Source: Candidatus Electrothrix yaqonensis
Lineage (GTDB): Bacteria; Desulfobacterota; Desulfobulbia; Desulfobulbales; Desulfobulbaceae
Assembly (NCBI GenBank): GCA_047651235.1
Contig: CP178758.1
Coordinates: forward strand, 30,001 to 62,000
Direction: 5' to 3'
Length of the DNA stretch: 32,000 nucleotides
The notes beneath the pieces are model-generated. The model was not told the DNA's origin, searched no databases, and saw only the letters and a program-made list of their open reading frames with translations. Position numbers and translations under genes: made by a program. Of this stretch, positions 1,866 through 21,395 are shown piece after piece (within the stretch, counting starts at the first letter, position 1; every line of letters begins with the position of its first letter).

Positions 1866-1906
1866 AATTTAATCGAAAGGAACCCGCAAACAACAGGTTG
1901 CATTAT

Positions 1907-3004
1907 ATGCTCATTGGAATTCCTCGGGAAATCAAGAAGGACGAGTACAGGGTGGCAATGCTGCCGGTCGGGGTGGAACTGCTGAAAAAGGACGGCTGCA
2001 GCATTCTGTTCCAGAAAGGGGCCGGTCTGGGCAGCGGCTATGCGGATGATGCCTATGCTGCTGCCGGTGCGGAATTAGTGGACAGCGCCGATGAAATCTA
2101 TGCTCAGGCAGAGATGGTCGTCAAGGTGAAGGAGCCGCAGCCGGAGGAAATTGCCCGATTCCGGCCTGGCCTGCTTGTGTTCTGCTATTTTCATTTTGCC
2201 GGATCCCGTGACTTAACTGAAGCCTGCCTGAAAAAGCAGATCGCAGCTGTGGCGTATGAGACGCTGGCAGACAGGCAGGGACATCTTCCTCTCCTGACCC
2301 CGATGAGCGAGATCGCCGGTAAGATGTCGATCCAGGAAGGAGCCAAATGTCTGGAAAAGCCGATGATGGGCAGAGGCATCCTGCTGGGCGGCGTACCCGG
2401 AGTAGCACCGGCCAATGTCCTGATCATCGGCGGCGGGATCGTGGGTGCCAGTGCCGCGCGGGTGGCTGCCGGTCTTGGTGCAAATGTGGTGCTTATGGAT
2501 ATCAGTCTGGATCGGCTCCGCTATCTGGACAGTATCATGCCCCCGAATGTCACGACAGTCTTTTGCGATCCCTATACAATTCGGCAATGCGTGGCTCCTG
2601 CTGATCTGGTTGTCGGGGCAGCGCTTGTGCCGGGCGGCAAGACACCGGTGCTGATCGACCGTCAAACTCTGCGGACCATGAAAAAAGGCGCTGTGTTAGT
2701 GGATGTATCCATTGATCAGGGCGGATGTTTTGCAACAAGCCGTCCGACCACCCATAGCGATCCGGTCTTTATTGAAGAGGGCGTTGTGCATTATTGCGTA
2801 ACAAACATGCCCGGTGCTGTCGGGCGGACCAGCACCAAAGCCCTCTGCAATGCCACGCTGCCCTACTGCCGGGAACTTGCGCAGGCAGGATTGGACGTCT
2901 TTGTCAAACGGACTACGGGGCGTGCTGCTGCGCTTAATATGCGCGAAGGAAAACTGCTGCATCCTGCGGTAGCCAGGGCGTTTCCTGATCTGGTGCATGG
3001 ATAG
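1907..3004 (+). CDS. ald: alanine dehydrogenase
   Basis: MLIGIPREIKKDEYRVAMLPVGVELL... has the typical Ald N-terminus, the GGGIVGASAA Rossmann motif, and a length of about 365 aa. The ATG at 1907 is preferred over the TTG at 1898 used by the ORF track. Confidence 0.93.
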   Translation: MLIGIPREIKKDEYRVAMLPVGVELLKKDGCSILFQKGAGLGSGYADDAYAAAGAELVDSADEIYAQAEMVVKVKEPQPEEIARFRPGLLVFCYFHFAGSRDLTEACLKKQIAAVAYETLADRQGHLPLLTPMSEIAGKMSIQEGAKCLEKPMMGRGILLGGVPGVAPANVLIIGGGIVGASAARVAAGLGANVVLMDISLDRLRYLDSIMPPNVTTVFCDPYTIRQCVAPADLVVGAALVPGGKTPVLIDRQTLRTMKKGAVLVDVSIDQGGCFATSRPTTHSDPVFIEEGVVHYCVTNMPGAVGRTSTKALCNATLPYCRELAQAGLDVFVKRTTGRAAALNMREGKLLHPAVARAFPDLVHG

Positions 3005-4352: not shown

Positions 4353-4674
4353 AACACACTTCCCGGCGATTTATAAAAAAGCAGGTAACCCGGCGGTCTC
4401 CTTCTCTTCCGGGAGATCCGTGGCTTTCCGACACCGCCTCGCGACGGCTGTGGCTTTATCAGCTTTCCGGTATCGACCAGAAAGCGAAGTATATATTAAA
4501 ATCCATGCAAGTATTGTTCCTTTTTTAGTGTGTATTGTCAATATTGATTAGAAATGAATTCAACTACATTGAATTCTTCAGCTGAGATAGATGCTTTTTG
4601 TTTTTGCATTTTTTTTACCCGATTTCAATAAAAGATATTTTTTTACCTGACACCTATTATCAGAGGTCAAAAAT

Positions 4675-4879
4675 GTGTTGCTGTTGCTGATCTGGTCGTC
4701 GGGGCAGCGCTTGTTCCGGGCGGCAAGACACCGATATTGATCGGTCGTCAAATGCCGGGAATTCGCCCAGGCAGGATTAGATGTCTTTGTCAAACAGACT
4801 GCCGGACGTGCTGCTACGCTTAATATGCGCGAAGGGAAGCTGCTGCATCCTGTGGTAGCCAAGGCGTTTCCTGATCTGG
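4675..4879 (+). pseudogene. remnant of a second alanine dehydrogenase 3' end, with an internal deletion of about 200 bp
   Basis: 4685-4752 aligns with ald 2599-2666, and 4753-4879 aligns with ald 2867-2993 (ctgatctgg...caagacacc; tgccgggaa...gcgtttcctgatctgg). I estimate about 85-90 percent identity by eye. There is no start codon and the frame is broken. Confidence 0.85.
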
Positions 4880-5252: not shown

Positions 5253-6383
5253 TTAGAGGGTTATGCTGAACCGGGAGTTTTTTTTAAAACAGCTTGTCAG
5301 GTCGGAAGTCGCTAACGAACACTCAATCACCCCGTCCTCCGAGGTCACGAGATAAATATCCACCTGCAGGCCGGAGCACTGCTCCGCATACTCCCGGGCC
5401 CGCAGGCAAACCGCCCGGATCAGATCGGCCCTGCCTTGGGCCTGTAAAATCTGCAGAATCTCTCTGGCTGTGTTGGCTGCGGCCATGCGGGCGACGCTTT
5501 CCTGCTCCAGTCTCAGTTCACCGAGCAGACGGGCAGCCTGCTTCATCTCCAAGGCTCCGTTGCGCACATGGGTCTGGGGAATACACAAGGCGCACTTGAG
5601 GACTTTGGCCCACATACCGGCCAGGTGGATGCGGCGGAAGCCGTGCCGCTGCGCTGCAGTGAGGGCATAGGCCAGATAATCGCCCATCATCACCTGGGCC
5701 TCTTCCGGCAGATGCAGGATTTTCTGCACGGCCGCCTCCGAGGTGCGCCCCGTGGACAGGATGACCTGATCCAGTCCGGCAGCGCGGGCCACCTTCATGG
5801 AGGCGTCAACGGTATCGGTCCAGGCCTTGGCCGAGACCGGGCGGACAATGCCGGTGGTGCCGAGAATAGAAAGCCCGCCGAGAATGCCCAGCCGTTTGTT
5901 CAGCGTCTGTTCTGCCAGCTGCTCACCGTTGCGCACACTGACTGTGACAGCCAGCCGTACCGGCCTGTTCTGCCGCTCTGTCACTTCGGCCACGGCCTCC
6001 CGGATCATCCGCCGGGGACCGGGGTTGATGGCCGGTTCTCCCACGGCAACCGGCAGACCGGGCTTGGTCACGGTTCCCACCCCGGCACCGGCCCTGAGTA
6101 CAACCGTTTCTTCGCCTTCCTCCAGTTCCAGCTCTCTGACAGAAGCAAGGATCTCGGCCCCGTTGGTCACATCCGGATCATCTCCGGCATCCTTGATGAC
6201 GGACGCCATCGCGTTGCCTTCCTGCAGTTTGCAGGTATGCAGAAGAAAACTGTGCCGTTCCCCGTTGGGAAAAAGGATGTCTACCTGCTCAGGATGCTGC
6301 CCTGCAAGGAGCAGCAGGGTTGCCGCTTTCGCTGCAGCCGCTGCGCAGGCCCCGGTAGTAAAGCCGGATCGGAGGGTACTCAT
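5253..6383 (-). CDS. cbiD: cobalt-precorrin-5B (C1)-methyltransferase
   Basis: LRSGFTTGACAAAAAKAA is the typical CbiD N-terminus, and the length (376 aa) fits. Confidence 0.9.
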   Translation of the reverse strand: MSTLRSGFTTGACAAAAAKAATLLLLAGQHPEQVDILFPNGERHSFLLHTCKLQEGNAMASVIKDAGDDPDVTNGAEILASVRELELEEGEETVVLRAGAGVGTVTKPGLPVAVGEPAINPGPRRMIREAVAEVTERQNRPVRLAVTVSVRNGEQLAEQTLNKRLGILGGLSILGTTGIVRPVSAKAWTDTVDASMKVARAAGLDQVILSTGRTSEAAVQKILHLPEEAQVMMGDYLAYALTAAQRHGFRRIHLAGMWAKVLKCALCIPQTHVRNGALEMKQAARLLGELRLEQESVARMAAANTAREILQILQAQGRADLIRAVCLRAREYAEQCSGLQVDIYLVTSEDGVIECSLATSDLTSCFKKNSRFSITL

Positions 6384-11664: not shown

Positions 11665-11785
11665 GCAGGGAGGAGATGCAGGAACCTAATCCGGAAAGCC
11701 TTTGAGCAAAAATCATAAAAGAGGGGAAATCGTGTGGGTGACGGGAACAGAGGTGAGTTGCCGCAGCAGAAAAGTTGTTGGCGGG

Positions 11786-11857
11786 CTAATGCTGCAAATA
11801 ACCGGTGCAAATGGAGCGCAGCGGAATTTGCATCCGAGTTAATTTGCCTTGTTAGCG
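11786..11857 (-). repeat. attC site 1 (distal end of the array; R' box degenerate, ATTAGC)
   Basis: On the plus strand: gctaatgctgcaaataaccggtgcaaatggagcgcagcggaatttgcatccgagttaatttgccttgttagc. It shares the central atggagcgcagcggaat with attC 2. Confidence 0.7.
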
Positions 11858-11858
11858 C

Positions 11859-13592
11859 TTACATTGTTTCTATTATGCCTCTGAGTTCATCCAGTTTATA
11901 ATCTGAAATTTCACCATTTTGGTGCTTCACGATAATATTTAGCGGCTTTAAATCTTTTCTTTTTGGTTTTTCGATTCCCAAAAATGATTCGAAGTCATTC
12001 TCAAAAGCATAGATTGTTTTGGTAAAAGCTGTTCTCTTTTGTTCAATAAAAGAATTGATTATTCCGTGTATACCTGCATCTTCATCCGAATCAAGCATGA
12101 CAGAATGTTGTATGCCTAAGGCAGTCATCAATGTGATGCATCGATGTATATTGAATTTTCCTAATGTATCAAACAGATACATATGTTTTTCTCTGAGGTC
12201 AGGCCAATATTCATCAAGCAAGTAGTCTATAAATACTTTTTCTGATGTGCCCTCGCAAATAATAACCTTCTTAGCAAAGAACATTGCGGCTCTTTCAGAA
12301 TCTAACCACAAAAAATACTTAACAGCCTCTTCCTCTAATTTCGATGAATGACATGGATCATCTTCGCCGAGCTTGTCCTTTCGTATTCTTTTTTTTATGC
12401 CCTCGTCAATGTCATCCGAATTCAAACAATCACAAAATTTATTATAAAGGCCAAGGTTTGCATCAATCACCTTTGAAAAAATTTTATCTGTTATTTGAAA
12501 AGTTTCTGTTTTTCCGTTGTTTTTAGAAAGTCGTATTATTCCCGACAATTGAGATGCTTGCTTGCTTACAAAATGGGGAGAGTGACTTGAAATTAAGACT
12601 TGCTCAGGGCCTTTAGATGCAAGGGACCTTAGGCTTAGGTGAAGAGAGTTCTGTTGAGCAGGATGGAGAAATGCCTCAGGTTCTTCGAATAATATTAGTG
12701 TGAAATCGGGGTCGAAGTCTTTTTTCTTACCTGCTGTTGTTGCAGCATACTTAGCAGATAATTTAATCAGAGTGAAAATTAAATGTCGCTGAAGGCCTTG
12801 ACCAAATGAAGCAAGATTAATTTGTTTCCCACCAAGCCCAACATCCTCGATATAATGCGACAGAAGGTTTTTAACAATATCCTCAGGCTTTATCGTATTG
12901 ACTGATACGCCAAACTTAATGTTCCATAAATTTATTTCTGAATTAATGTCGTCAATAAGTGAATCAATAGAAAAGCCATCTTTGGATGATTCGGTTTTAA
13001 AATCAGTATTAAATGTGTCAAAAGCCGTCTTCAATCCGCCGAATGTAGGGCTCTCAAGGACGGCCCGTTTCATAACGAAATTGACCATTTCTCGAAATGG
13101 TGATGGCCCGGAGAGCTTTAGTGTTTCATCTGTTTTGCTAACAGCTGGAATGAATATAACCTTCCCCAACTTTGCTTGAGACACATTTTTTGCACCATAA
13201 AACAGATTAATTGACAAAACACCAGATTCATAAGCGTATATATTGCTCTGGGAAGATTTAACCAGTTCTTTGTTTGATGATTGAAAATATTTTCTAACCC
13301 TTAAGATTTTGTCAGAGGATTTATACTCATCTTTTAAGCTATCTTGTTCATCTTCTGTTGTTTCAAAGGCTAATTCAATCCAACTTTCTTCATCATCAAC
13401 CTCAAACTTTGGGAAATCAGTGTCTTGCTTATACTTAAGTCCTCCATCTTCATAAAAGAGCCTAAGTGCGGTAATGATATTTGTCTTTCCAGCATTGTTT
13501 TCACCTACCAACATTGAATAGTCAGATAGCTGGCACTCCACATCTTTGATAGATCGAATGTTATGAATGACTAGTTTTTTAAGTTTCATCAC
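11859..13592 (-). CDS. OLD-family ATP-dependent endonuclease (ABC-type ATPase fused to Toprim), stand-alone
   Basis: Walker A GENNAGKTN, Walker B/signature LILFEEPEAFLHP, SSHSPHFV, and C-terminal Toprim motifs VIICEGTSEKVF and DSDED. 577 aa. It is the only ORF in its cassette and no UvrD-like partner is nearby. Confidence 0.85.
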   Translation of the reverse strand: MMKLKKLVIHNIRSIKDVECQLSDYSMLVGENNAGKTNIITALRLFYEDGGLKYKQDTDFPKFEVDDEESWIELAFETTEDEQDSLKDEYKSSDKILRVRKYFQSSNKELVKSSQSNIYAYESGVLSINLFYGAKNVSQAKLGKVIFIPAVSKTDETLKLSGPSPFREMVNFVMKRAVLESPTFGGLKTAFDTFNTDFKTESSKDGFSIDSLIDDINSEINLWNIKFGVSVNTIKPEDIVKNLLSHYIEDVGLGGKQINLASFGQGLQRHLIFTLIKLSAKYAATTAGKKKDFDPDFTLILFEEPEAFLHPAQQNSLHLSLRSLASKGPEQVLISSHSPHFVSKQASQLSGIIRLSKNNGKTETFQITDKIFSKVIDANLGLYNKFCDCLNSDDIDEGIKKRIRKDKLGEDDPCHSSKLEEEAVKYFLWLDSERAAMFFAKKVIICEGTSEKVFIDYLLDEYWPDLREKHMYLFDTLGKFNIHRCITLMTALGIQHSVMLDSDEDAGIHGIINSFIEQKRTAFTKTIYAFENDFESFLGIEKPKRKDLKPLNIIVKHQNGEISDYKLDELRGIIETM

Positions 13593-13607: not shown

Positions 13608-13678
13608 GCTAACGACTGAACTCACTGGTTTTTATGGAGCGCAGCGGAATAAAAATCCAGTGCAGTGATTTGTTATGT
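13608..13678 (-). repeat. attC site 2
   Basis: GCTAAC(13608-13613) gactgaactcactggtttttat ggagcgcagcgga ataaaaatccagtgcagtgattt GTTATG(13672-13677). The arms are imperfectly paired with bulged bases. Confidence 0.8.
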
Positions 13679-13712: not shown

Positions 13713-14402
13713 CTAAACTGCTAATGCATTAACCAATTTATCGAAATAAGATACCAAAACACTCTTTATTTCATTTACGCAATTAAGATACCTTTTCAAA
13801 GTTTCTTCATCCTGTCCATCCGGCCATGGATTTGTAACGTCTCCACTAAGCCCAAAAAACTCTTTGAATAAATAAACTCTCTCGTTTCTTTGAGGAAATT
13901 TCAACTCAAGCATTTTGAGAACATCTTGCGACATTACTATAATCAAATCTGCGTTTTCAAATATATCCTTTGTGATTTGTCTACACTTATGATTAGACAA
14001 TAAATCTTTACCATATACTGACTTGATGGCATATTTAGCTCCATATGAAACTTTCAAATCAGAACTGTCACTCACTGCCATAGCTTTAATTTCTAATTTA
14101 AGGTTAAGCCCTTTTTTATTAAGAAGTTGTTCTGTAATTACCTTAGCAATTGGATCTCTACAAGTTCCACCAGTGCTTAGGTAAACAAGAACTTTTGATT
14201 TTTTAATTTTTCTTATTAATCTCGATATACCACCCCATAACAAAAGAAAACATGTTGGAATCAAAAGCAGACTAATCTTTGTCAACCAATTAATGTTTTG
14301 GAATTTAGGAGACAGCTCAAGATATAAGATTCCTAATACCCAAATCAAAGCAGCAGCTATAAGTTTGCTAAATACTGGATCTTTCCAAATTTTCTTTATC
14401 AC
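13713..14402 (-). CDS. membrane-anchored LMW-PTP/ArsC-fold protein with substituted catalytic residues
   Basis: The probable GTG start at 14402 avoids overlap with attC 3; the ORF-track start 14444 lies inside the attC. There are two N-terminal hydrophobic helices. VLVYLSTGGTCRDP aligns to the LMW-PTP P-loop V-C-x-G-N-x-C-R-S-P with Ser in place of the nucleophilic Cys. HKCRQITKDIFENADLIIVM matches, and VTNPW replaces the DPY acid-loop motif. Confidence 0.65.
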   Translation of the reverse strand: MIKKIWKDPVFSKLIAAALIWVLGILYLELSPKFQNINWLTKISLLLIPTCFLLLWGGISRLIRKIKKSKVLVYLSTGGTCRDPIAKVITEQLLNKKGLNLKLEIKAMAVSDSSDLKVSYGAKYAIKSVYGKDLLSNHKCRQITKDIFENADLIIVMSQDVLKMLELKFPQRNERVYLFKEFFGLSGDVTNPWPDGQDEETLKRYLNCVNEIKSVLVSYFDKLVNALAV

Positions 14403-14418
14403 ATTGTTCTCTCTTACA

Positions 14419-14489
14419 CATAACGACCAAGCTGTGCGGCGCAAACGAAGCGCAGCGTAGTTTGCGTCCGAACGAGCGCCTTGTTAGCT
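14419..14489 (-). repeat. attC site 3
   Basis: CATAAC(14419-14424)...gcgcaaac gaagcgcagcgta gtttgcg...GTTAGC(14483-14488). The TAA stop of the 222 aa ORF lies inside the core. Confidence 0.8.
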
Positions 14490-15152
14490 CTTTTCTGAAT
14501 CTTCTTCATCTGAAATATATGAAACCAGCATTCTACCAAGTGTAGTAAGGCTAGTTGTTTTACCCCGTTCCTCTGTCAAGCCGAGCCTTAAAAGCGTTGC
14601 TTTATAACTATCTTGCAATGCGGCCCTTTCATGCTGCTCTTGAGGTGCCCCCATTGTTCTGCTTATAGGATTAAGTATTTCCGGGTGTTTCTCTACCCAT
14701 TCAGAATGAGGCCCCTTACCAAGTACTGGGTTTAATGAATAGTAAATCAGCCAAACAATCTCTGGATCGGTGAGTTCTCTATACAAGTTGATTAGCTTCC
14801 GAGCCTCTTCATATTTCATCTCTTTTGCTGATAATGATTTTGCTACCAATCTAGCCAACCGCTCTTTTCTTTCCTTAGAAACAGATCTCGATGCTTGAAC
14901 TATTCCTTCCTCAAATATGTCGAGTCCCTCTTCAGCTTTGAGATGTTCTTTAAAGGAGGAAAATCGCTCATCTAAGTGAGCCACATTATTCTCAAGAGTC
15001 TTTAGGAAACTGACAACTCGCTCGAACCGCAGATTTGGCACTACTGCATCTAGCGTTTCCCCCACTAACGTTCCAATAAATGGGAGCGCGCCTGCCGCCG
15101 CTTTCGCAACACTAACCAATCTGTCCCTAGAGTTTGTTTCAAGCTGCTTCAT
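14484..15152 (-). CDS. hypothetical protein (single-gene cassette)
   Basis: A 222 aa, mostly helical ORF with RBS AAGGGG upstream and its stop codon embedded in attC 3. The N-terminal LPFIGTLVGETLDAVVPNLRFERV faintly recalls Abi_alpha/DUF4393-type proteins. This is unverified. Confidence 0.7.
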   Translation of the reverse strand: MKQLETNSRDRLVSVAKAAAGALPFIGTLVGETLDAVVPNLRFERVVSFLKTLENNVAHLDERFSSFKEHLKAEEGLDIFEEGIVQASRSVSKERKERLARLVAKSLSAKEMKYEEARKLINLYRELTDPEIVWLIYYSLNPVLGKGPHSEWVEKHPEILNPISRTMGAPQEQHERAALQDSYKATLLRLGLTEERGKTTSLTTLGRMLVSYISDEEDSEKS

Positions 15153-15169: not shown

Positions 15170-15260
15170 GCTAACGCATCACATCACCGGCAGCAAAAGG
15201 CAGAGCGACGAGGAACGAGGAGCGGCGCTTTTTGCTGTCCGAGTGCATGTGTTTGTTAGC
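15170..15260 (-). repeat. attC site 4
   Basis: GCTAAC(15170-15175) gcatcacatcaccggcagcaaaagg ... cgctttttgctgtccgagtgcatgtgttt GTTAGC(15255-15260). Its arms are closely related to those of attC 5. Confidence 0.85.
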
Positions 15261-15270
15261 ATTTTTATTG

Positions 15271-17262
15271 TCATATATCACATTTTAGCGACTGCATTCT
15301 GACAAGCTTTCCCCAACGCTCCCCTAGCAATGATATGCCATAAAGTGATGGATTTACTTCAAGATACCGATCAATAAGTGTCCGTGTTTTTTCTGTTATC
15401 TTATTTGTGGCACCATTAGCAGTATTGATTAGATAATAATCAAAAGTTTCTTTATTCCTTAAAGGAATTATTGCAATGACTTTTTTTGCCTCGACCATGT
15501 CCGGTATGCCGTTCAACCTATATAATTTTCTGGTTTCATGTTCATACGACATTCCATATCTCTTTAATAAAGGCAATAAATGTTCTCGCTGGGAAAATAC
15601 TGAAGAGGCATAGCTTTCTAGCTTATGTGCGTCAATGGTAAGTTTCTTACTCCACTCTTCTGCATCACTGCTACTTATGCCAGATGATAAAGAATATTTG
15701 TGCCATATCGACAAACAGCCTTTAGTTGCGACATCTATTGAAACGCCATGTTTATCAGGATTATAGAATACTGGCGAGCCATATTCTAATAAGAAACTTC
15801 CTGTGCCAAACGAACCAATATGCTTTGAGTTATTAATTACAAAATCGTATGTCTCTTTAGCGTCTTCATGTGTTTCACCTGGAAAACCAAAGAAAGTAAA
15901 GCAGTTTATAAAAATCCCACTGTCAGCTGCGGCAATCAGATTCTTTTTTATCGTATCTTTTGATGGGAAATTGGTTTTATTCATCAACCCCAAGACGCGC
16001 TCGGATGCTGATTCTAAACCAACATACATTACCAGAAAGCCTTTTTCATACAAATTACTAAATATCTCTTTTGAAAAAGACTCTTCAAAACGCATGATTC
16101 CAGAAAACGACCAACCACTTTGCTTTTTAGTTGGAAAAACGCGACCAATATCGCGTAATAAACGAGGTGGCATGGCCTCGTCATTAAAGCAAAAGTTGCT
16201 TACTCTATATTTGTTACTCAGCCTTTCTATTCTTTCCAAAAGCTGTCTTGTTTTTACATAATTAAACTTTCCGCCATAAACTTCGCTGTGTGTACAAAAT
16301 TCACACTTACCCCAATAACAACCTCGATATGATAATATTGGAAGTGTAACTTCAGAAGTAAAATATTTTTCGAAATCTATATCAGAAAAATCTGGATCAA
16401 CATCTACGCTAATATTGCGATAATCGTGAGAAAATTCACCATTAAAAACAGTGTTTCCAGACTCCATAAAATAGATATTGGGAACATCTTCAGTAAGGGC
16501 CTTGCCAGCACAATTGTTATTTAAAATAGCAGAACAAGGAATTTCCCCCTCTCTTTTGACGACTATATCAAAATAGATAGTAAACCATCTTGAAGGAATA
16601 GACGTTCGATCAAGCAATCTATATAGCACCGTACCGCCAACAACCACAGTTTTTTTTGTATTCTCTTTTAGTGCTTTTCCCATCATTAAAGTCATCAACA
16701 ATTGACTATAGCCAACACATGAAATCCCGATTATTGATGCGTTATGGACGTCAGGACTATCAAGGAAGCTCTCCACAAACCGTTGAAGGAGGCTATTTTT
16801 CTTTGATAGAATTTTTTCTAATTCGTCAACATAAAATCCTGATTTTGAATGCATTTCCATGCCGAATGGCGAAATAGAAACCGGTTTGGTAAGTAATGAA
16901 ATTGTTTCCAGGTATGAAGTCAATATTCGCGTTGCAATATAGCTGTTCTGTAAATACTTGTTATTATCAGATTCTCCGCCCTTTAATAATTCATGAATCG
17001 AGGTTCTTATATGGCGTATATTAGATATAGTCGCTCTAATTGCTTCTTTTTTTTGACAGTCAAAGCCATGATTATCCTTTAGCTCTTCCAACAGAATGTT
17101 TGCCGCTTCATCTGATAGTAAATAGTGATAAAAGTCTATGTTTGCATCAATACAACCAACGCGGTAGCCTTCATTTCGTAACCAGCCTGCAAGTGTGGAA
17201 ATAGTTAGCGCGGGTTGAAATGGACTCCATTGTGGAGGGAAAATTAGCGTTATATCATGCAT
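15271..17262 (-). CDS. B12-binding-domain radical SAM enzyme (putative peptide-modifying enzyme)
   Basis: The N-terminal MHDITLIFPPQWSPFQPALTISTLAGWLRNEGYRV and VVVGG are typical of the cobalamin-binding Rossmann-like domain of class B radical SAM enzymes. The cluster motif is RGCYWGKCEFC. The start at 17262 is preferred because the hairpin at 17289-17326 overlaps the longer ORF-track start. Confidence 0.8.
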   Translation of the reverse strand: MHDITLIFPPQWSPFQPALTISTLAGWLRNEGYRVGCIDANIDFYHYLLSDEAANILLEELKDNHGFDCQKKEAIRATISNIRHIRTSIHELLKGGESDNNKYLQNSYIATRILTSYLETISLLTKPVSISPFGMEMHSKSGFYVDELEKILSKKNSLLQRFVESFLDSPDVHNASIIGISCVGYSQLLMTLMMGKALKENTKKTVVVGGTVLYRLLDRTSIPSRWFTIYFDIVVKREGEIPCSAILNNNCAGKALTEDVPNIYFMESGNTVFNGEFSHDYRNISVDVDPDFSDIDFEKYFTSEVTLPILSYRGCYWGKCEFCTHSEVYGGKFNYVKTRQLLERIERLSNKYRVSNFCFNDEAMPPRLLRDIGRVFPTKKQSGWSFSGIMRFEESFSKEIFSNLYEKGFLVMYVGLESASERVLGLMNKTNFPSKDTIKKNLIAAADSGIFINCFTFFGFPGETHEDAKETYDFVINNSKHIGSFGTGSFLLEYGSPVFYNPDKHGVSIDVATKGCLSIWHKYSLSSGISSSDAEEWSKKLTIDAHKLESYASSVFSQREHLLPLLKRYGMSYEHETRKLYRLNGIPDMVEAKKVIAIIPLRNKETFDYYLINTANGATNKITEKTRTLIDRYLEVNPSLYGISLLGERWGKLVRMQSLKCDI

Positions 17263-17271
17263 TCTTGTTTT

Positions 17272-17326
17272 CCAAACAAAGATAAATACCATGAGCATCT
17301 CGATCTTAATACCAAGACGCTCATGG
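17272..17326 (-). terminator. attenuator/terminator-like hairpin between the peptide genes and the radical SAM gene
   Basis: Minus-strand CCATGAGC(17326-17319), a 22 nt loop, GCTCATGG(17296-17289), followed by TATTTATCTTTGTTT. Confidence 0.45.
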
Positions 17327-17346
17327 TAAAGATGGCTATCTTCATT

Positions 17347-17505
17347 TTAGTTATTGTTATTGTTTTGATACGTATCCGTCATTCTTAGAACTGAGTTTGA
17401 GGCTGAAAGCACTTCAAGCATATCCTCTTCGGGTAATTCTCGAAGTTTCTCCACAATTTCTTTCTGAAATGCTAAGGACGCCGAATCGGGTTGCTCATTA
17501 TCCAT
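17347..17505 (-). CDS. putative RiPP precursor peptide 2 (52 aa)
   Basis: Not in the ORF track. RBS GGAGGA lies 6 nt upstream of the ATG at 17505. Sequence: MDNEQPDSASLAFQKEIVEKLRELPEEDMLEVLSASNSVLRMTDTYQNNNNN*. It is a paralogue of the adjacent peptide. Confidence 0.65.
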   Translation of the reverse strand: MDNEQPDSASLAFQKEIVEKLRELPEEDMLEVLSASNSVLRMTDTYQNNNNN

Positions 17506-17507
17506 AG

Positions 17508-17675
17508 CTAATCCTCCGCAACAATTGCCTTATTATTGTTGTTTTGGTATTCAACCGCCATTTTTAAAATGGAATTATTAGCTTGAAGTACTTCTAGCAT
17601 GTCCTCGTCACTGAGGGTTTTTAGTTTCGCTACGATCTCTTTGTTAAAAGCAGCAGCTTTTTCTTCATTAGACAT
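17508..17675 (-). CDS. putative RiPP precursor peptide 1 (55 aa)
   Basis: RBS AAGGAG lies upstream of the ATG at 17675. Sequence: MSNEEKAAAFNKEIVAKLKTLSDEDMLEVLQANNSILKMAVEYQNNNNKAIVAED*. It shares F-x-KEIV-x-KL..L..EDMLEVL...NS-x-L-x-M...YQNNNN with peptide 2. Confidence 0.7.
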   Translation of the reverse strand: MSNEEKAAAFNKEIVAKLKTLSDEDMLEVLQANNSILKMAVEYQNNNNKAIVAED

Positions 17676-17777
17676 AGTTCGTCTCCTTATTAAGGCTTTT
17701 GGAAAGTGATTAAACAAATGCTCTCGATGTGAAAACTAAATAGTATGCATAGGCCTCACCTCCTTTTCTTTATTGAT

Positions 17778-17960
17778 GCTAATGCCGAGTTGACCGTAAT
17801 TTTCCTGGTATAATGGCCGCTTGCGGTTGATTATACCAGGAAAATTTCGAGTCCAACGTTTGGTTCCGAAGGCGCGCAGCGCCGCAGGAATCAAATGTTG
17901 GGCCGGTACGGTCAACTCGGCATTCCAAAGGCGTGGCCCGAAGGGGCGCGCCTTTGGAAC
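17778..17960 (-). repeat. 183 bp structured ORF-less element, copy 1, inserted in attC 5
   Basis: I found no differences from 20306-20488 when comparing by eye. It splits GCTAA|C of attC 5. It contains a 16 bp long-range stem (aatgccgagttgaccg / cggtcaactcggcatt), a perfect 17 bp AT-rich hairpin, a 15 bp hairpin and a 9 bp GC hairpin. Confidence 0.9.
17830..17856 (-). promoter_or_regulatory. candidate extended -10 promoter inside element copy 1, facing the peptide/rSAM cassette
   Basis: On the minus strand: TTGGAC(17856-17851), a 15 nt spacer, then TGGTATAAT(17838-17830). A mirror TGGTATAAT lies on the plus strand at 17806-17814. Confidence 0.35.
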
Positions 17961-18051
17961 GCCACACATCACCGGCAGCAAAAAGTAGTGTGGCTGTAGC
18001 GAAGCGTAAGCCGCGCTGCTTTTTGCTGTCCGAGTGAATGTGATTGTTAGC
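17960..18051 (-). repeat. attC site 5 (its GCTAA half-core is displaced to 17778-17782 by the 183 bp element)
   Basis: c gccacacatcaccggcagcaaaaag ... gctgctttttgctgtccgagtgaatgtgatt GTTAGC(18046-18051). The TAA stop of the 115 aa ORF lies inside the core. Confidence 0.8.
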
Positions 18052-18394
18052 TTTTATCTTTCTCAACTACAGCTATATGTGCAGGTGGGCGAGTTCTTGA
18101 CATAGGCTGTAACGTTGGTTGTGTAGGTTGTGGCGTTCCAGGAGCCGCTCCGCCTCCAACCAGAATTACTACAGATGGAGTAAACCCGGGTATTTGAACA
18201 GGTGTACCTTGTTGTGGGACAAACGCAGAAGCATCATAGCTTTGAACTGATGGTTGTGTTCCTCCAATTTCCACTTCTACATCTTTTCTTGAACCATCAT
18301 CCAGCTCTAATTGAGTTCGAATTACTTCTCCAGTTTGATTATCAACCGTCAATACATATGTTGTCACATTCGATTTTTCTTCTTTCTTGCTCAT
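18047..18394 (-). CDS. hypothetical 115 aa protein with a Pro/Gln/Thr/Gly-rich C-terminal half (possible large precursor or substrate protein)
   Basis: RBS GGAGG precedes the ATG at 18394 (MSKKEEKSNVTTYVLTVDNQTGEVIRTQLELDDGSRKDVEVEIGGTQPSVQSYDASAFVPQQGTPVQIPGFTPSVVILVGGGAAPGTPQPTQPTLQPM...). The stop is embedded in the attC 5 core. The gene overlaps the upstream rSAM gene by 53 nt. Confidence 0.6.
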   Translation of the reverse strand: MSKKEEKSNVTTYVLTVDNQTGEVIRTQLELDDGSRKDVEVEIGGTQPSVQSYDASAFVPQQGTPVQIPGFTPSVVILVGGGAAPGTPQPTQPTLQPMSRTRPPAHIAVVEKDKS

Positions 18395-20282
18395 TGCAAA
18401 CCTCCATTTGGATTGTGGGGAAATTAGAAAATATTTTGGATAGAATTGCGTCCCCAATTATGAGCAAACCTATCCACTTTGAACCTGCTTCTATTACCAA
18501 GTTGGATTCTTTTAGCTGTTTTAAAAACCTATTCAAATGAAACTGCTGTATGTTTCTTTTATTTAATTCTTTAGCCAGAGAACTAAGGCTGATAGGCTTG
18601 TCTAGAAGCGCTAAGATAATAGACTCCTCATCACTAAAGTAATGATATCTCTTTTTTGAAATAATTCTTTCATCTACAACAATAGAGGTAGAATCCTTAT
18701 AAGTAAGGAACTCAAGCCTTGGCCTTTTATGTGAGTAATGTTTCCATTGCTGACAAGCGCTTACTAATGACTTGCTTTTTCGGTTTAGATTAAACCCTTC
18801 GCTGTAATCAAACTCAAAATAATAAGCAATATTATTGATTTCTTCTTCCGTTAACCTGTATACCTCTTTATATGTTTTCATAGGGCGAATATTTAGAAAT
18901 CCATGCTGATCAGGGCTGGTAAAGTTTGGACTAAAACGATCAAGACGAACTGCCGCGGTAGCTTGCGGTGGTTCTAAGTGATGAATATTCCAGACAACAT
19001 CCGTTTGAAATTGATAACTACTCTCATTTTCATTAGGAAATCCAAATAATAAGTTCCAAGCAATACCAACACCGTATTGTTTTGCCCATTTCAACAATGC
19101 AATATTTTGCGCTCCAGACACTCCCTTCCCAATCAATTTTAATGTGTCATCAGAGAAACTCTCGATCCCTGGTTGAATTGAAATTACCCCTGCTTCTTTA
19201 AGTTTTTTAACGTCACTTCGCTTGATATTAGACTTAGTTTCAAAGAAGATTTGTATATCATGTGGGATGTGGGATAATTCCTTGATAAAAGTTTTAAAAT
19301 ACTGATGATCAATAATGTTATCCGTAAAGTCTATTTTTTTTACATCATATTTTTTCGATAGAGCAAGTAACTCATAAAGCGCTCTATTTGGCGACTTTCT
19401 CCTATAGGACATAGTCCTTCCGTTTAGGCCACAAAATGTACAGTGACTTTTCTGGCCCCACCAACAACCTCGGGATGATTCAATAAATATTCCTTTTCGA
19501 CCTGACAAAGAATAATTTAGGTTTTTTACATAGTTAAAATAATCATCAAAATCTGGATAAGGAAGGCTGTCTAAATTCTCAGTTAAGTCATATGGTGAAT
19601 TGATAAAAATCTTCCCATTCTTTCGTATGGAAAAACCATTAGTTTCTTCTTCACAGTTATGTATTTTTCTTCTAAGGAGCTCTGGAAAAGAAGAGTCGGC
19701 CTCACAGGTCGATACGTAATCGATATGGTTAAAGCTCTTCAATAGTTGGCTCCCCATTTCCGATTCACAATTTGCACCACCAAAACATATCGAAATAGAG
19801 GGGAAATTATTTTTTATCTCTCTCGATAAGTAGAGACTAGGAAATGTTTGTTCGAAAGTATTTGTAAAACCTACCACGCCATATTTAAACCACGGCGCCG
19901 ACTTTAGACATAGCGAGATAAAATGATTAACTACCCCTCGAATGTCAATAACTGCGTCAAGAAGATGCTTAGGCATAGGCCAGCCACTTTCTAAAAGAAA
20001 GTTGTCGATATATGAAAAATCCGACTTGGAGAGCTCATAATATTCTGATGAGAAGACCCACTCTCCTAGTAACAGGTCATTTGGCACTACAAACCCATCA
20101 ATTTCCAAAGTGCCACACATGAATTCATAACGTTCCGAAGATATTAATTTGGCAAACAGAACATTGAAGTCAAAAATGTCAACATTATGACCTTCATTTT
20201 CCAGAATTGATTTTAGAAGCCCCAAGGCCAGAGATGGTCTTTCAGCTGAAGAGAACGGCATATTTATTAATGCAACATTCAT
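18342..20282 (-). CDS. B12-binding radical SAM enzyme of the RiPP-maturation type (TIGR03975-like), with a C-terminal winged-helix/RRE-like region
   Basis: MNVALINMPFSSAERPSLALGLLKSILENEGHNV..., GEWVFS and SSRGCWWGQKSHCTFCGLNG (C-x7-C-x2-C) match my memory of the rSAM_ocin_1 family. The C-terminal FSDEESIILALLDKPISLSSLAKELNK...FLKQLKESNLVIE looks like a PqqD/RRE-type wHTH. Confidence 0.8.
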   Translation of the reverse strand: MNVALINMPFSSAERPSLALGLLKSILENEGHNVDIFDFNVLFAKLISSERYEFMCGTLEIDGFVVPNDLLLGEWVFSSEYYELSKSDFSYIDNFLLESGWPMPKHLLDAVIDIRGVVNHFISLCLKSAPWFKYGVVGFTNTFEQTFPSLYLSREIKNNFPSISICFGGANCESEMGSQLLKSFNHIDYVSTCEADSSFPELLRRKIHNCEEETNGFSIRKNGKIFINSPYDLTENLDSLPYPDFDDYFNYVKNLNYSLSGRKGIFIESSRGCWWGQKSHCTFCGLNGRTMSYRRKSPNRALYELLALSKKYDVKKIDFTDNIIDHQYFKTFIKELSHIPHDIQIFFETKSNIKRSDVKKLKEAGVISIQPGIESFSDDTLKLIGKGVSGAQNIALLKWAKQYGVGIAWNLLFGFPNENESSYQFQTDVVWNIHHLEPPQATAAVRLDRFSPNFTSPDQHGFLNIRPMKTYKEVYRLTEEEINNIAYYFEFDYSEGFNLNRKSKSLVSACQQWKHYSHKRPRLEFLTYKDSTSIVVDERIISKKRYHYFSDEESIILALLDKPISLSSLAKELNKRNIQQFHLNRFLKQLKESNLVIEAGSKWIGLLIIGDAILSKIFSNFPTIQMEVCNEQERRKIECDNICIDG

Positions 20283-20305
20283 TTATGGCTCCTGTCTCAT
20301 TTAAA

Positions 20306-20488
20306 GCTAATGCCGAGTTGACCGTAATTTTCCTGGTATAATGGCCGCTTGCGGTTGATTATACCAGGAAAATTTCGAGTCCAACGTTTGGTTCCGAAGG
20401 CGCGCAGCGCCGCAGGAATCAAATGTTGGGCCGGTACGGTCAACTCGGCATTCCAAAGGCGTGGCCCGAAGGGGCGCGCCTTTGGAAC
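20306..20488 (-). repeat. 183 bp structured ORF-less element, copy 2, at the promoter-proximal end of the array
   Basis: No differences from 17778-17960 by eye. It is flanked by GCTAA| and |C, so removing it restores GCTAAC (GGTTAGC on the cassette strand). Confidence 0.9.
20358..20384 (-). promoter_or_regulatory. candidate extended -10 promoter inside element copy 2, facing the rSAM gene at 20282
   Basis: Same sequence as 17830-17856. TGGTATAAT lies about 75 nt upstream of the ATG at 20282. Confidence 0.35.
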
Positions 20489-20765
20489 CATTGATTATCA
20501 GAGAATCAGTCCTTATAGTCACCGAAACCTGATATTCTCAGGGAGAAATACCCTGAGATTCGACTTATCAGTATATTTTCCCAGATAACTTGAATTCTTT
20601 ACTGTTATCTGATAATATATTCCTGAATAATTTATTATCAGAGCACCATTATCTGTCTCTAAACGCATCTTTCAGATATGTCAAGAGAAAACACAAGAGG
20701 AATGAAATATCGGGAAAAGATGGGAAAAATGAGCTGATCATACGTTACTGATTTTAATTTCCGTC

Positions 20766-21395
20766 TCATCCTTTCTTTTCATCAATTCCCCGGTTCGCCA
20801 GTTCGTCCGCCCGTTTGTTCTGTTCCCTGGGCACATGGGCGACGGACCAGTCCTGCAGCCCGGCAAGCAGCTGCTTCACTTCCAGAAACAGGGGCTTGAG
20901 GGCTGCGTTCTTGACTTTGTACTGCCCCTGAATCTGCCGGACAATGAGCTGGGAATCAAGAAAGATTTCCAGGTGGCTGCAGCCCAGTTCCAGTGCGGAC
21001 TGCAGGCCGAGGCGCAGGGCCTTGTACTCGGCCACATTATTTGTGCATTGGCCGAGATAGAGCGACCGGACGGCCAGTTCCTGTCCTGCGGTATCCAGCA
21101 GTACAGACCCGGCTCCGGCCTCTCCGGGATTGCCTCTGGAAGCACCATCGGTGAACAGCCTGCAGGAAAGCGCGGAACCGGTGGAAATGCCGCTGAGTTT
21201 TTTCTGCTGTGCCTGTGCAGGCTCGATTTGTTCGATTAATTTCTCTTTTCCGTACAGAACAGCCCGCACGTTAGCCGGGGAATACGCAGGAAAGAGCTGC
21301 TCCAGAGTGCTGTCCGGCAGCTGCTCCGCCAGCACAGCCAGGACAGCGGCCCTGTTCATGCTGTTCATGCCGCGCTCATGCTTCTGCTTCATCAT
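20766..21395 (-). CDS. RNase HI-family (RNase H type 1 / RVT_3-like) protein with an N-terminal extension
   Basis: LFTDGASRGNPGEAGAGSVL...NNVAEYKALRLGL...LDSQLIV...REQNKRADELAN carries the RNase H DEDD-type motifs. The exact start is uncertain, since the ORF overlaps the upstream gene. Confidence 0.85.
   Translation of the reverse strand: MMKQKHERGMNSMNRAAVLAVLAEQLPDSTLEQLFPAYSPANVRAVLYGKEKLIEQIEPAQAQQKKLSGISTGSALSCRLFTDGASRGNPGEAGAGSVLLDTAGQELAVRSLYLGQCTNNVAEYKALRLGLQSALELGCSHLEIFLDSQLIVRQIQGQYKVKNAALKPLFLEVKQLLAGLQDWSVAHVPREQNKRADELANRGIDEKKG

Follow-up and report, generated by a model that had tools for sequence, protein, structure and literature searches.

A 32,000-nt stretch of the Candidatus Electrothrix yaqonensis genome (GenBank assembly GCA_047651235.1, contig CP178758.1, positions 30,001 to 62,000), hereafter the window and numbered from its first letter, carries an integron cassette that in our judgement likely encodes a minimal, mobile pathway resembling those for ribosomally synthesised peptides with post-translational modifications (RiPPs). 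The cassette holds two small paralogous genes, termed pepA and pepB here, followed by the gene of a radical S-adenosylmethionine (SAM) enzyme of the cobalamin-dependent type. Judging from the related sequences, it is a mobile form, with a duplicated precursor, of a widespread two-gene system rather than a one-cassette oddity, and that system is probably a real and new RiPP family. The following features carry the argument; gene coordinates include the stop codon.

17508 to 17675, minus strand: pepA, a 55-aa precursor-like peptide with the C-terminal part ...EYQNNNNKAIVAED
17347 to 17505, minus strand: pepB, a 52-aa precursor-like paralogue with the C-terminus TDTYQNNNNN
17287 to 17328, minus strand: an imperfect RNA stem of 18 pairs between pepB and the radical SAM gene
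15271 to 17262, minus strand: the radical SAM enzyme gene, 663 aa, cobalamin type (class B)
16294 to 16320, minus strand: the codons of the [4Fe-4S] motif C315-x4-C320-x2-C323 (CYWGKCEFC), invariant in 26 aligned homologues
15274 to 15510, minus strand: the C-terminal domain of the enzyme, residues ~585-663, three strands and then three helices, a candidate leader-binding domain similar to a RiPP recognition element (RRE)

The two paralogous precursor-like peptides that a preliminary description of this DNA had proposed are both present on the minus strand and are 61% identical in pairwise comparison. In pepA, a helical leader precedes the core YQNNNN, after which comes a follower of seven residues, KAIVAED; pepB has a fifth Asn at its C-terminal end, where pepA runs on into KAIVAED. 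The segments F-[NQ]-K-E-I-V-x-K-L, E-D-M-L-E-V-L, N-S-x-L-x-M and Y-Q-N-N-N-N are common to both, with F10, K12-E13, K17-L18, E24-D-M-L-E-V-L30 and Y43-Q-N-N-N-N48 invariant (pepA numbering). Each gene has a ribosome-binding site, as had also been noted: the Shine-Dalgarno box is AAGGAGA for pepA and GGAGGA for pepB, the latter lying within the final pepA codons, so that the TAG of pepA falls between this box and the ATG of pepB. In the annotation of Ca. Electrothrix sp. YB6, the peptides are hypothetical proteins and the enzyme is a 'B12-binding domain-containing radical SAM protein'. A search of 5.8 billion proteins for the peptide pair revealed three further cassette loci, L001 on a JGI contig of 2,683 bp, L002 on a Logan contig and L003 on an ENA contig (metagenomic). 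In each, a gene of the pepA type (55 aa) precedes one of the pepB type (54 aa), and wherever the contig extends further it reaches the radical SAM gene, which in L001 is 61% identical. The pepA orthologues of these loci show 85-87% identity, whereas pepA and pepB inside one locus are only ~60% identical. Orthologues from different loci thus resemble each other more than the two paralogues of one locus do, which makes the duplication an old one, after which both paralogues were retained.

Both peptides are under strong purifying selection. Between the window and the other loci, synonymous sites are close to saturation (proportion of synonymous differences, pS, 0.65-1.0), and the ratio of nonsynonymous to synonymous differences (pN/pS) is 0.06-0.10 for pepA, compared between the window and the diverged loci, and 0.20-0.23 for pepB, compared with its orthologues in L001 and L002. 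L001 and L003 are near-identical (pS 0.03, pN/pS 0.9), and this pair carries no selection information. The codons of YQNNNN switch synonymously (TAC/TAT, CAA/CAG, AAC/AAT) while the residues stay fixed, and the ribosome-binding sites of the peptide genes are kept across the cassette loci. Scans of pepA, pepB and five distant precursors against Pfam, NCBIfam and PADLOC returned no family match; a match to a known non-RiPP family, which had been set beforehand as the refutation of the precursor idea, was therefore not encountered in these databases. When a profile of the Electrothrix-type peptides was searched with HMMER against 1.84 billion representative proteins, it retrieved pepA-type and pepB-type clusters and otherwise only three spurious long proteins. 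As this narrow profile reached no remote precursors, these were accessible only via the genomic context of the enzyme and profile-profile comparison.

Enzyme homologues at 30-42% identity number more than 260, and the upstream regions of enzyme homologues at 80 genomic loci were scanned for small open reading frames (ORFs). Among the 31 genome loci with an enzyme at least ~30% identical, 26 show, upstream of the enzyme gene and on its strand, a small ORF whose C-terminal part is an Asn/Gln run. Both metagenome contigs likewise have such an ORF, one a Q10 precursor and the other a triple VNNNNINQ precursor. Peptide and enzyme thus stand together in 28 of the 33 loci examined, in several phyla, as expected if homologous peptides accompany this radical SAM clade in other genomes. 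The pairing occurs in Streptomyces, Kitasatospora, Parafrankia, Myxococcus, Devosia, Afifella, Bryobacterales and others, with cores that range over N7, Q9-13, NQNQNQ and N4HN4:

Streptomyces (L004): core INQNNNNN
Kitasatospora (L006): core TNNNNNNNTKKK
Parafrankia (L007): core NNNNHNNNN
Acidimicrobiales, Paractinoplanes and Kitasatospora (L005, L008, L013): core Q9-10
Bryobacterales (L010, L012): cores DNQNQNQG and DNNNQNQG
Devosia (L016): core HNNQNQNG
Sorangium (L086): core HNNHNNQH
Afifella, Phaeobacter and Reyranella (L018, L020-L022, L024): three tandem units, each closed by DNQNQNQG
Myxococcus (L023, L026-L030, L033): Q10-12 after a signal-peptide-like N-terminus
Allosphingosinicella (L025): core Q13, of the same signal-peptide-like type as in Myxococcus

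The leaders of these diverse precursors are homologous to those of Electrothrix. They align along F-N-x-[KR]-I-A-x-L-[VIL]-K-x-A-x-P-x-[DE]-[IL]-V-x-[IV]-L...S-L-L, with a profile-profile (hhalign) probability of 96% and an E of 2e-9, and a joint leader profile searched against 5.8 billion proteins retrieved peptides of both kinds (E 1e-8 to 1e-14), all matches being named 'hypothetical protein' or nameless. In a neighbour-joining tree, the core types form enzyme clades (N-run actinobacteria, Q-run actinobacteria, Q-run Myxococcus, triple-NQNQNQ alphaproteobacteria and the doubled YQNNNN type), and the enzymes associated with Asn/Gln peptides cluster apart from distant relatives without such a peptide, which are found in Nitrospinota (often as tandem enzyme pairs), Roseiflexus and Gastranaerophilales. 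All-against-all ORF clustering over the 33 loci identified no other conserved neighbour, except a lineage-specific gene of ~815 aa that Myxococcus shares with one further locus; the conserved unit is the peptide plus the enzyme. The preliminary description regarded Tyr-Gln-Asn4 as invariant, which holds for the Electrothrix-type peptides; the Tyr is lacking in nearly all other members of the family and cannot be the common target, whereas the Asn/Gln carboxamide run, tolerating internal His, Ile or Thr, is the feature shared across the family. The sequences accordingly bear the marks by which RiPP systems are recognised: a precursor gene that adjoins the enzyme gene, a conserved leader with a distinct core, and co-occurrence and co-variation across genomes.

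Several variants of the arrangement were also observed. In the triple-unit precursors (L018, 3539-3907; L020, L021, L022 and L024; metagenome L103, 2358-2693), each unit has its own short helical recognition-like segment and its own Asn/Gln core, DNQNQNQG or VNNNNINQ. In Myxococcus and relatives (L023, L025-L030, L033), the Q10-13 run lies mid-peptide and is followed by a conserved C-terminal segment. The ~815-aa gene is convergent and downstream of the enzyme in the Myxococcus loci and is upstream on the same strand in L025; together with the signal-peptide-like precursors, it suggests a secreted variant of the system. At 28-30% identity (L034-L083, Nitrospinota and others), the cobalamin (B12) radical SAM genes often form tandem pairs and have no ORF with an Asn/Gln run, and these enzymes probably represent a functionally different subfamily.

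The third gene of the cassette encodes the 663-aa B12-type radical SAM enzyme of the preliminary description. An upstream start codon, ATG 17298, falls within the conserved hairpin, and the alignment with homologues begins with MHD at 17262; that codon was therefore rejected, and 17262 is taken as the start of the enzyme. Pfam Radical_SAM (PF04055) matches with 45.4 bits (gathering score 29.5, E 1.3e-11), and this match together with the three-Cys motif places the protein in the superfamily. An AlphaFold (AF2) model built on 26 homologues reached a predicted local distance difference test score (pLDDT) of 89 and a predicted template modelling score (pTM) of 0.90. Its closest folds in the PDB are MgmA (9ccb, E 4.4e-15) and then TsrM, OxsB, AprD4, TokK and CysS, and the cobalamin-dependent radical SAM structures among them (MgmA, TsrM, OxsB, TokK, CysS) are matched over both domains at E 1e-12 to 1e-15. 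In the N-terminal Rossmann domain, the Gly and Ser residues G179, S181, G184, G209 and G210 are invariant. By its modelled fold the enzyme is a member of class B, and it is this fold match, not the Pfam B12-binding score, on which the B12-type assignment is based.

No curated family accommodates the enzyme. The top NCBIfam match, TIGR03975, scores 90.5 bits in two partial stretches of a 606-position model with a cutoff of 281.85, and distant members of the enzyme family reach 89-116 bits with the same model. TIGR04014, the glutamine C-methyltransferase of methyl-coenzyme M reductase (MCR), scores 49 bits (4e-13) against a cutoff of 360, a resemblance in fold only. The nearest hidden Markov models (HMMs), TIGR03975, PhpK, ApyD and TIGR04014, all describe B12 radical SAM methyltransferases, and since every score is far under its cutoff, the enzyme belongs to none of these families. 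A PDB sequence search with the full enzyme gave no informative match. In both models, the C-terminal domain shows strands at 596-600, 609-613 and 618-622 and helices at 624-635, 640-644 and 648-654, and the alignment reveals a family-conserved VNRxNGxV strand there. Three strands followed by three helices are the topology of an RRE, and the domain may be a candidate RRE-like module. The earlier statement that the cassette has no separate RRE gene may be wrong in spirit given this topology.

The hairpin between the peptides and the enzyme, together with its U-rich tail, had been described before; both are present, although the stem comprises 18 pairs and not 8. It lies in the 84-nt spacer between pepB and the enzyme gene, and a U-rich tract (~17271-17286, UAUUUAUCUUUGUUU) follows directly after the stem. 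The 101-nt intergenic segment 17255-17355 has a minimum free energy of -34.5 kcal/mol (z = -5.7), a stability that none of 200 shuffled sequences reached, and a pattern scan found the hairpin to be the only strong terminator-like site of the whole cassette. Across the three loci compared, compensatory double substitutions occur at 7 of the 18 stem pairs, indicating that the structure is selected. A conserved GC-containing stem-loop, a U tract and covariation are what is expected of a terminator or attenuator, and the hairpin is a candidate partial terminator or mRNA-stabilising structure. By analogy with other RiPP operons, it is reasonable to suppose that it sets the ratio of precursor to enzyme.

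The three genes travel as a single unit. The boundaries of the cassette are defined by the following sites:

17683 to 17782, minus strand: the 5' end of the cassette, opening TTAGCATCAA, with a conserved AAGGAGGTGA box ~100 nt upstream of pepA
15171 to 15260, minus strand: the closing attC recombination site, boxes GCTAAC / GTTAGC, crossover G|TT at 15175|15174
17958 to 18060, minus strand: the attC of the preceding cassette (upstream boundary), an imperfect hairpin whose R' box is split by a 188-nt element

At both bounds, the inverse core RYYYAAC, the core GTTRRRY and the imperfect hairpin that characterise attC sites are present. The closing site is a 90-nt palindrome directly after the enzyme gene, and its bottom strand, as single-stranded DNA, forms an imperfect hairpin in which some bases are bulged (z = -5.5). 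The cassette therefore extends from 17782 to 15175, ~2.6 kb, and contains pepA, pepB and the enzyme gene only; the protease and transporter that the preliminary description had found lacking are indeed not among these genes. The start of the cassette, G|TTAGCAT[C/A]AA...AGG[A/G]AGGT[G/A]A, is identical in position in L001, L002 and L003. Upstream of it, L002 and L003 have two different well-folding attC sites and L001 has unrelated sequence, and in L001 the radical SAM stop codon is followed by the same attC start as in the window. The recurrence of the same boundaries behind different upstream sequences identifies a bona fide mobile three-gene cassette, in agreement with the earlier proposal.

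The AAGG(A/G)AGGT(G/A)A box directly behind the cassette boundary was located in all four loci (window, 17683-17782; L001, 131-232; L002, 281-378; L003, 372-470), where it is kept while the remaining 5' region diverges; in the window, a 4-codon mini-ORF (MHTI and stop) comes next. The box may serve the cassette as a signal for translation or transcription. The array as a whole occupies ~11.8-20.5 kb of the window at a GC content of 35-41%, compared with 54-59% in the flanks, which carry enolase on one side and RNase H, NIF3 and tRNA genes on the other. No integron integrase was found when the larger ORFs of the 32-kb window were scanned against Pfam, and within the window the array is therefore CALIN-like, that is, similar to a cluster of attC sites lacking an integrase. 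The array ends ~280 bp from the RNase H gene (20766-21395), and the AT-rich gap at 20489-20765 contains several promoter-like hexamer pairs directed into the cassettes.

We propose that pepA and pepB are ribosomal precursors with an amphipathic helical leader of ~40 residues (F-N-x-x-I-V-x-K-L-K...D-M-L-E-V-L...S-I-L-K-M), which would be recognised by the class-B enzyme, probably via the fused C-terminal three-strand/three-helix domain. The enzyme would then modify the C-terminal Asn run or, in relatives, the Asn/Gln/His-interspersed run. For the chemistry, iterative methylation of the carboxamide residues at unactivated carbons of side chain or backbone is suggested by analogy, with a chance that we place at or just short of even: the 5'-deoxyadenosyl radical would abstract a hydrogen and methylcobalamin would supply the methyl group. 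Methylation is the most probable chemistry because the characterised RiPP class-B enzymes, the nearest HMMs and the nearest structure are all methyltransferases; indeed, all RiPP-associated class-B enzymes characterised so far, and most of the class-B enzymes characterised overall, belong to this group (PMC11285071, PMC12931638). The hairpin and U tract would probably terminate or stabilise the majority of transcripts behind the peptide genes, so that more precursor than enzyme is made, and the whole unit would spread as a single integron cassette. As the cassette contains neither protease nor exporter, leader removal and export, if any, would be carried out by host functions, and the product might be bioactive. 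On balance, we lean towards a still broader interpretation, in which the cassette would be the first member to be noticed of an undescribed, phylum-spanning RiPP family with a homopolymeric or alternating Asn/Gln core (N4-7, Q9-13 or NQNQNQ, sometimes triple or behind a signal peptide), modified by a dedicated clade of CX4CX2C cobalamin radical SAM enzymes with a fused leader-binding domain. Two genes would suffice, allowing carriage as a single integron cassette, and the chemistry, which would leave carboxamide tracts poly-C-methylated or otherwise radical-modified, would be new among peptide natural products.

Several observations weigh against this proposal, in whole or in part. No leader peptidase or exporter is found among the three genes of the cassette, nor is one conserved beside its relatives. 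A clear Asn/Gln ORF is missing in 5 of the 33 loci, one of which is truncated upstream and two of which have ambiguous N-rich tails. The Pfam B12-binding match is sub-threshold (20.8 against 32.1 bits, E 3.5e-4). For the C-terminal domain, there was no PqqD match in Pfam at E values up to 10 and no PDB sequence match, and in a Foldseek comparison with the PDB, the best RREs were those of lasso-peptide TbiB1 (5v1v) and 6jx3, at a non-significant E of ~1.3-2.1. With respect to methylation, the matches to characterised methyltransferases fall far short of the family cutoffs, and the cluster motif CX4CX2C differs from CX3CX2C and from the CX7CX2C of PoyC and MpcB (PMC10849626, PMC11285071). Furthermore, MgmA is only marginally ahead in fold of enzymes that are non-canonical or do not methylate, namely TsrM, OxsB and AprD4, which makes methylation a prior and not a result. 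In the same precursor-enzyme pair, the enzyme could instead carry out a non-methylating radical reaction on the Asn/Gln run, such as C-C or C-N crosslinking of adjacent carboxamide residues, crosslinking to the Tyr in the Electrothrix type, cyclisation or dehydrogenation. We regard this as unlikely, albeit the most serious of the alternatives: the near-equal fold similarity of OxsB (ring contraction), AprD4 (dehydratase) and TsrM (non-radical transfer), the remoteness of the enzyme family from all curated methyltransferase models, its own CX4CX2C motif and the invariant Tyr ahead of the run in Electrothrix-type peptides would all suit it, while the precedent of the characterised class-B enzymes and the identity of the top HMM matches favour methyl transfer, and a Tyr missing from almost all of the rest of the family argues against Tyr crosslinks as the general product.

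Other roles for the peptides were considered. The peptide could be the scaffold of a small peptide-derived cofactor or metabolite, and not a modified peptide for secretion, with processing by host enzymes encoded elsewhere, in the manner of PqqA/PqqE or MftA/MftC. PqqA and MftA also have their cores at or near the C-terminus, and a two-gene unit without protease or exporter, whose neighbours are unconserved in every lineage, would be compatible with such a role. It is nevertheless improbable, given that cofactor pathways need several dedicated, co-localised enzymes, none of which is conserved here, that the variable length and composition of the cores (N4 to Q13, triple repeats) and the signal-peptide-like N-termini of some precursors are a better fit to peptide products, and that a function carried in an integron array is more likely to be accessory than core. 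Toxin-antitoxin and defence cassettes are common in integron arrays, and a cassette for an OLD-family nuclease (11859-13592) lies nearby; the small proteins might accordingly be regulators, antitoxin-like partners or accessory subunits, with the enzyme acting on an unrelated substrate. This is more improbable still, because Pfam, NCBIfam and PADLOC gave no match of the peptides or the enzyme to defence proteins, antitoxins or regulators, and a leader with a low-complexity core, multi-core precursors (L018, L020-L022, L024, L103) and the co-variation of core and enzyme clade are predicted for a substrate and hard to reconcile with a regulator. Finally, the low GC content of the cassette (35-41%) and the low complexity of AAC/AAT runs could raise the suspicion that the peptide ORFs are chance frames in AT-rich DNA, an idea to which we assign practically no weight. 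It is refuted by purifying selection, with pN/pS at 0.06-0.23 under near-saturated synonymous divergence in every informative comparison, residues invariant through synonymous changes and ribosome-binding sites kept; moreover, as homologues occur in GC-rich actinobacteria, the Asn runs there do not result from base composition. A precursor peptide modified by the adjoining radical SAM enzyme remains the interpretation that best accommodates these observations.

If this interpretation is correct, the system would constitute a new RiPP family, one in which the enzyme acts on a tract of polyasparagine or polyglutamine. Tracts of this kind are normally associated with disorder and aggregation rather than with tailoring by enzymes. 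A B12 radical SAM enzyme acting iteratively on carboxamides would represent both new chemistry and a tool for peptide engineering, and a precursor with one enzyme would be about as minimal as radical SAM RiPP systems get. Candidate RiPP families turn up fairly often. Integron cassettes owe their reputation mainly to resistance genes, to which defence genes have lately been added. The present one would imply that such cassettes can also mobilise complete peptide-modification pathways, and two different B12 radical SAM cassettes adjoin each other here. Since cultured Streptomyces, Kitasatospora, Myxococcus, Devosia, Afifella and Phaeobacter between them already supply dozens of family members, experiments need not rely on the cable bacterium, which is uncultured.

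The surroundings of the cassette include the following further features:

17773 to 17960, minus strand: a 188-nt structured repeat, exactly at the attC G|TT junction before the pepA-pepB-enzyme cassette
11859 to 13592: a cassette for an OLD-family ATPase/TOPRIM nuclease (PADLOC Old, 5e-57)
13713 to 14444: a low-molecular-weight phosphatase-like ORF (Pfam LMWPc, residues 88-221 only)
14484 to 15152: a 222-aa protein with no family match, downstream of the pepA-pepB-enzyme cassette

The cassette next to that of pepA and pepB encodes a genuine TIGR03975 RiPP C-methyltransferase (18345-20282, minus strand, 646 aa, 599 bits, motif CX7CX2C). A 115-aa ORF (18394-18050), whose C-terminal half is Val/Gly/Pro-rich, overlaps the 3' end of this gene, and the segment 18050-20282 may be a second, proteusin-like RiPP cassette with its precursor downstream of the enzyme. 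A second copy of the 188-nt element, 99-100% identical to the first, lies at 20301-20488, before this neighbouring cassette. Inverted repeats nested within one another make up the element, which folds at -102.8 kcal/mol (z = -10.7). The first copy splits the GTTAGC box (GGCG|TTCCAAAGG...CGGCA|TTAGC); the second has no attC of that type upstream and also ends ...CGGCA|TTAGC just before the gene. Rfam contains no family that matches the element at its gathering score, the best sub-threshold match being the P35 small RNA (34.5 against 70 bits), and a metagenome scan with its 18-nt terminal arm yielded single-arm chance matches only. The element could be an ORF-less cassette, a miniature element that targets attC sites or a regulatory RNA. 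The cassettes with the OLD-family nuclease, the phosphatase-like ORF and the 222-aa protein have attC sites of a second sequence type, at 11785-11827, 13608-13650 and 14419-14461.

Outside the array, a gene for CbiD (5253-6383), an enzyme of cobalamin biosynthesis, is located in the chromosomal flank; a cobalamin supply for both B12 radical SAM cassettes is therefore plausible. A c-di-GMP-I (cyclic di-GMP) riboswitch at 4381-4464 on the minus strand (49.9 bits, gathering score 35) precedes a 140-aa ORF (4352-3930) without a Pfam match. About 200 nt from the 3' part (2586-2993) of the alanine dehydrogenase gene (1898-3004) are repeated ~2 kb downstream at 4672-4879 as blocks of 81 nt and 127 nt, 86-89% identical, and this repeat looks like a gene fragment or relic.

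The preliminary description did not recognise the pairing as a described RiPP class, and this assessment stands. Pfam, NCBIfam and PADLOC have no model for the peptide-enzyme pair, nor does any database give it a descriptive name. In the literature available as full text, which leaves most subscription journals outside its scope, we found no description of a B12 radical SAM enzyme paired with an Asn/Gln-run precursor and none of a RiPP pathway carried as an integron cassette. The system resembles the class-B radical SAM pathways of proteusins, bottromycin, clavusporins and aminopyruvatides, yet fits none of their curated families. The proteusin-type C-methyltransferases PoyB and PoyC (TIGR03975) also combine a B12-binding and a radical SAM domain in ~650 aa and act on a leader-bearing ribosomal peptide. 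However, the TIGR03975 score here is partial and below the cutoff, the motif is CX4CX2C where theirs is CX7CX2C (PMC11285071), and the precursors have Asn/Gln homopolymer cores instead of Val/Ile/Thr-rich ones and no NHLP or Nif11 leader; the epimerase, dehydratase and N-methyltransferase partners are absent as well.

The cobalamin-dependent radical SAM enzyme MgmA, also termed QCMT, places a methyl group on a glutamine carbon of the MCR polypeptide (PMC13469106). It is the first-ranked solved structure for the enzyme model, with an HMM match at 4e-13, but identity is 17% over 459 aligned columns, the template modelling (TM) score is only 0.37-0.56, and MgmA, at 417 aa and without the C-terminal domain, targets one Gln of a folded subunit rather than a leader-guided run. 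The clavusporin precursor MpcA of Streptomyces comprises a leader, a core and an acidic follower, and its B12 radical SAM enzyme hyper-methylates unactivated carbons; the pathway is widespread in actinobacteria and was demonstrated by co-expression with Fe-S and btuCEDFB helper plasmids (PMC10849626). A short precursor with leader and core beside a B12 radical SAM enzyme is common to both systems. Clavusporin was nonetheless excluded as the identity of the present system owing to its different partners, motif and core: MpcB has the motif CX7CX2C and requires the DUF5825 partner MpcC, the pathway includes an S9 peptidase and a major facilitator superfamily (MFS) exporter, none of which is present here, and its cores are hydrophobic and Val/Ile/Thr/Pro-rich, as opposed to polar carboxamides. 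ApyD (NF050148), likewise a RiPP-associated B12 radical SAM C-methyltransferase, is the third-best HMM match; its score is 51.6 bits against a cutoff of 750, and the Apy pathway needs a multinuclear non-haem iron-dependent oxidase (MNIO) and a P450 (PMC11117315), both absent here.

The genetic setting is closest to that of sedentary chromosomal integrons and CALINs, with which the array shares attC sites of the GCTAAC...GTTAGC type, imperfect hairpins, the G|TT boundary, varied neighbours, a low-GC island of ORFs mostly of unknown function and a defence cassette. It differs from them in the lack of an intI gene in the 32-kb window and in the additional 188-nt element at the junction. It also differs in the cassette itself, which is unusually large (~2.6 kb, three genes) and appears to carry a whole pathway.

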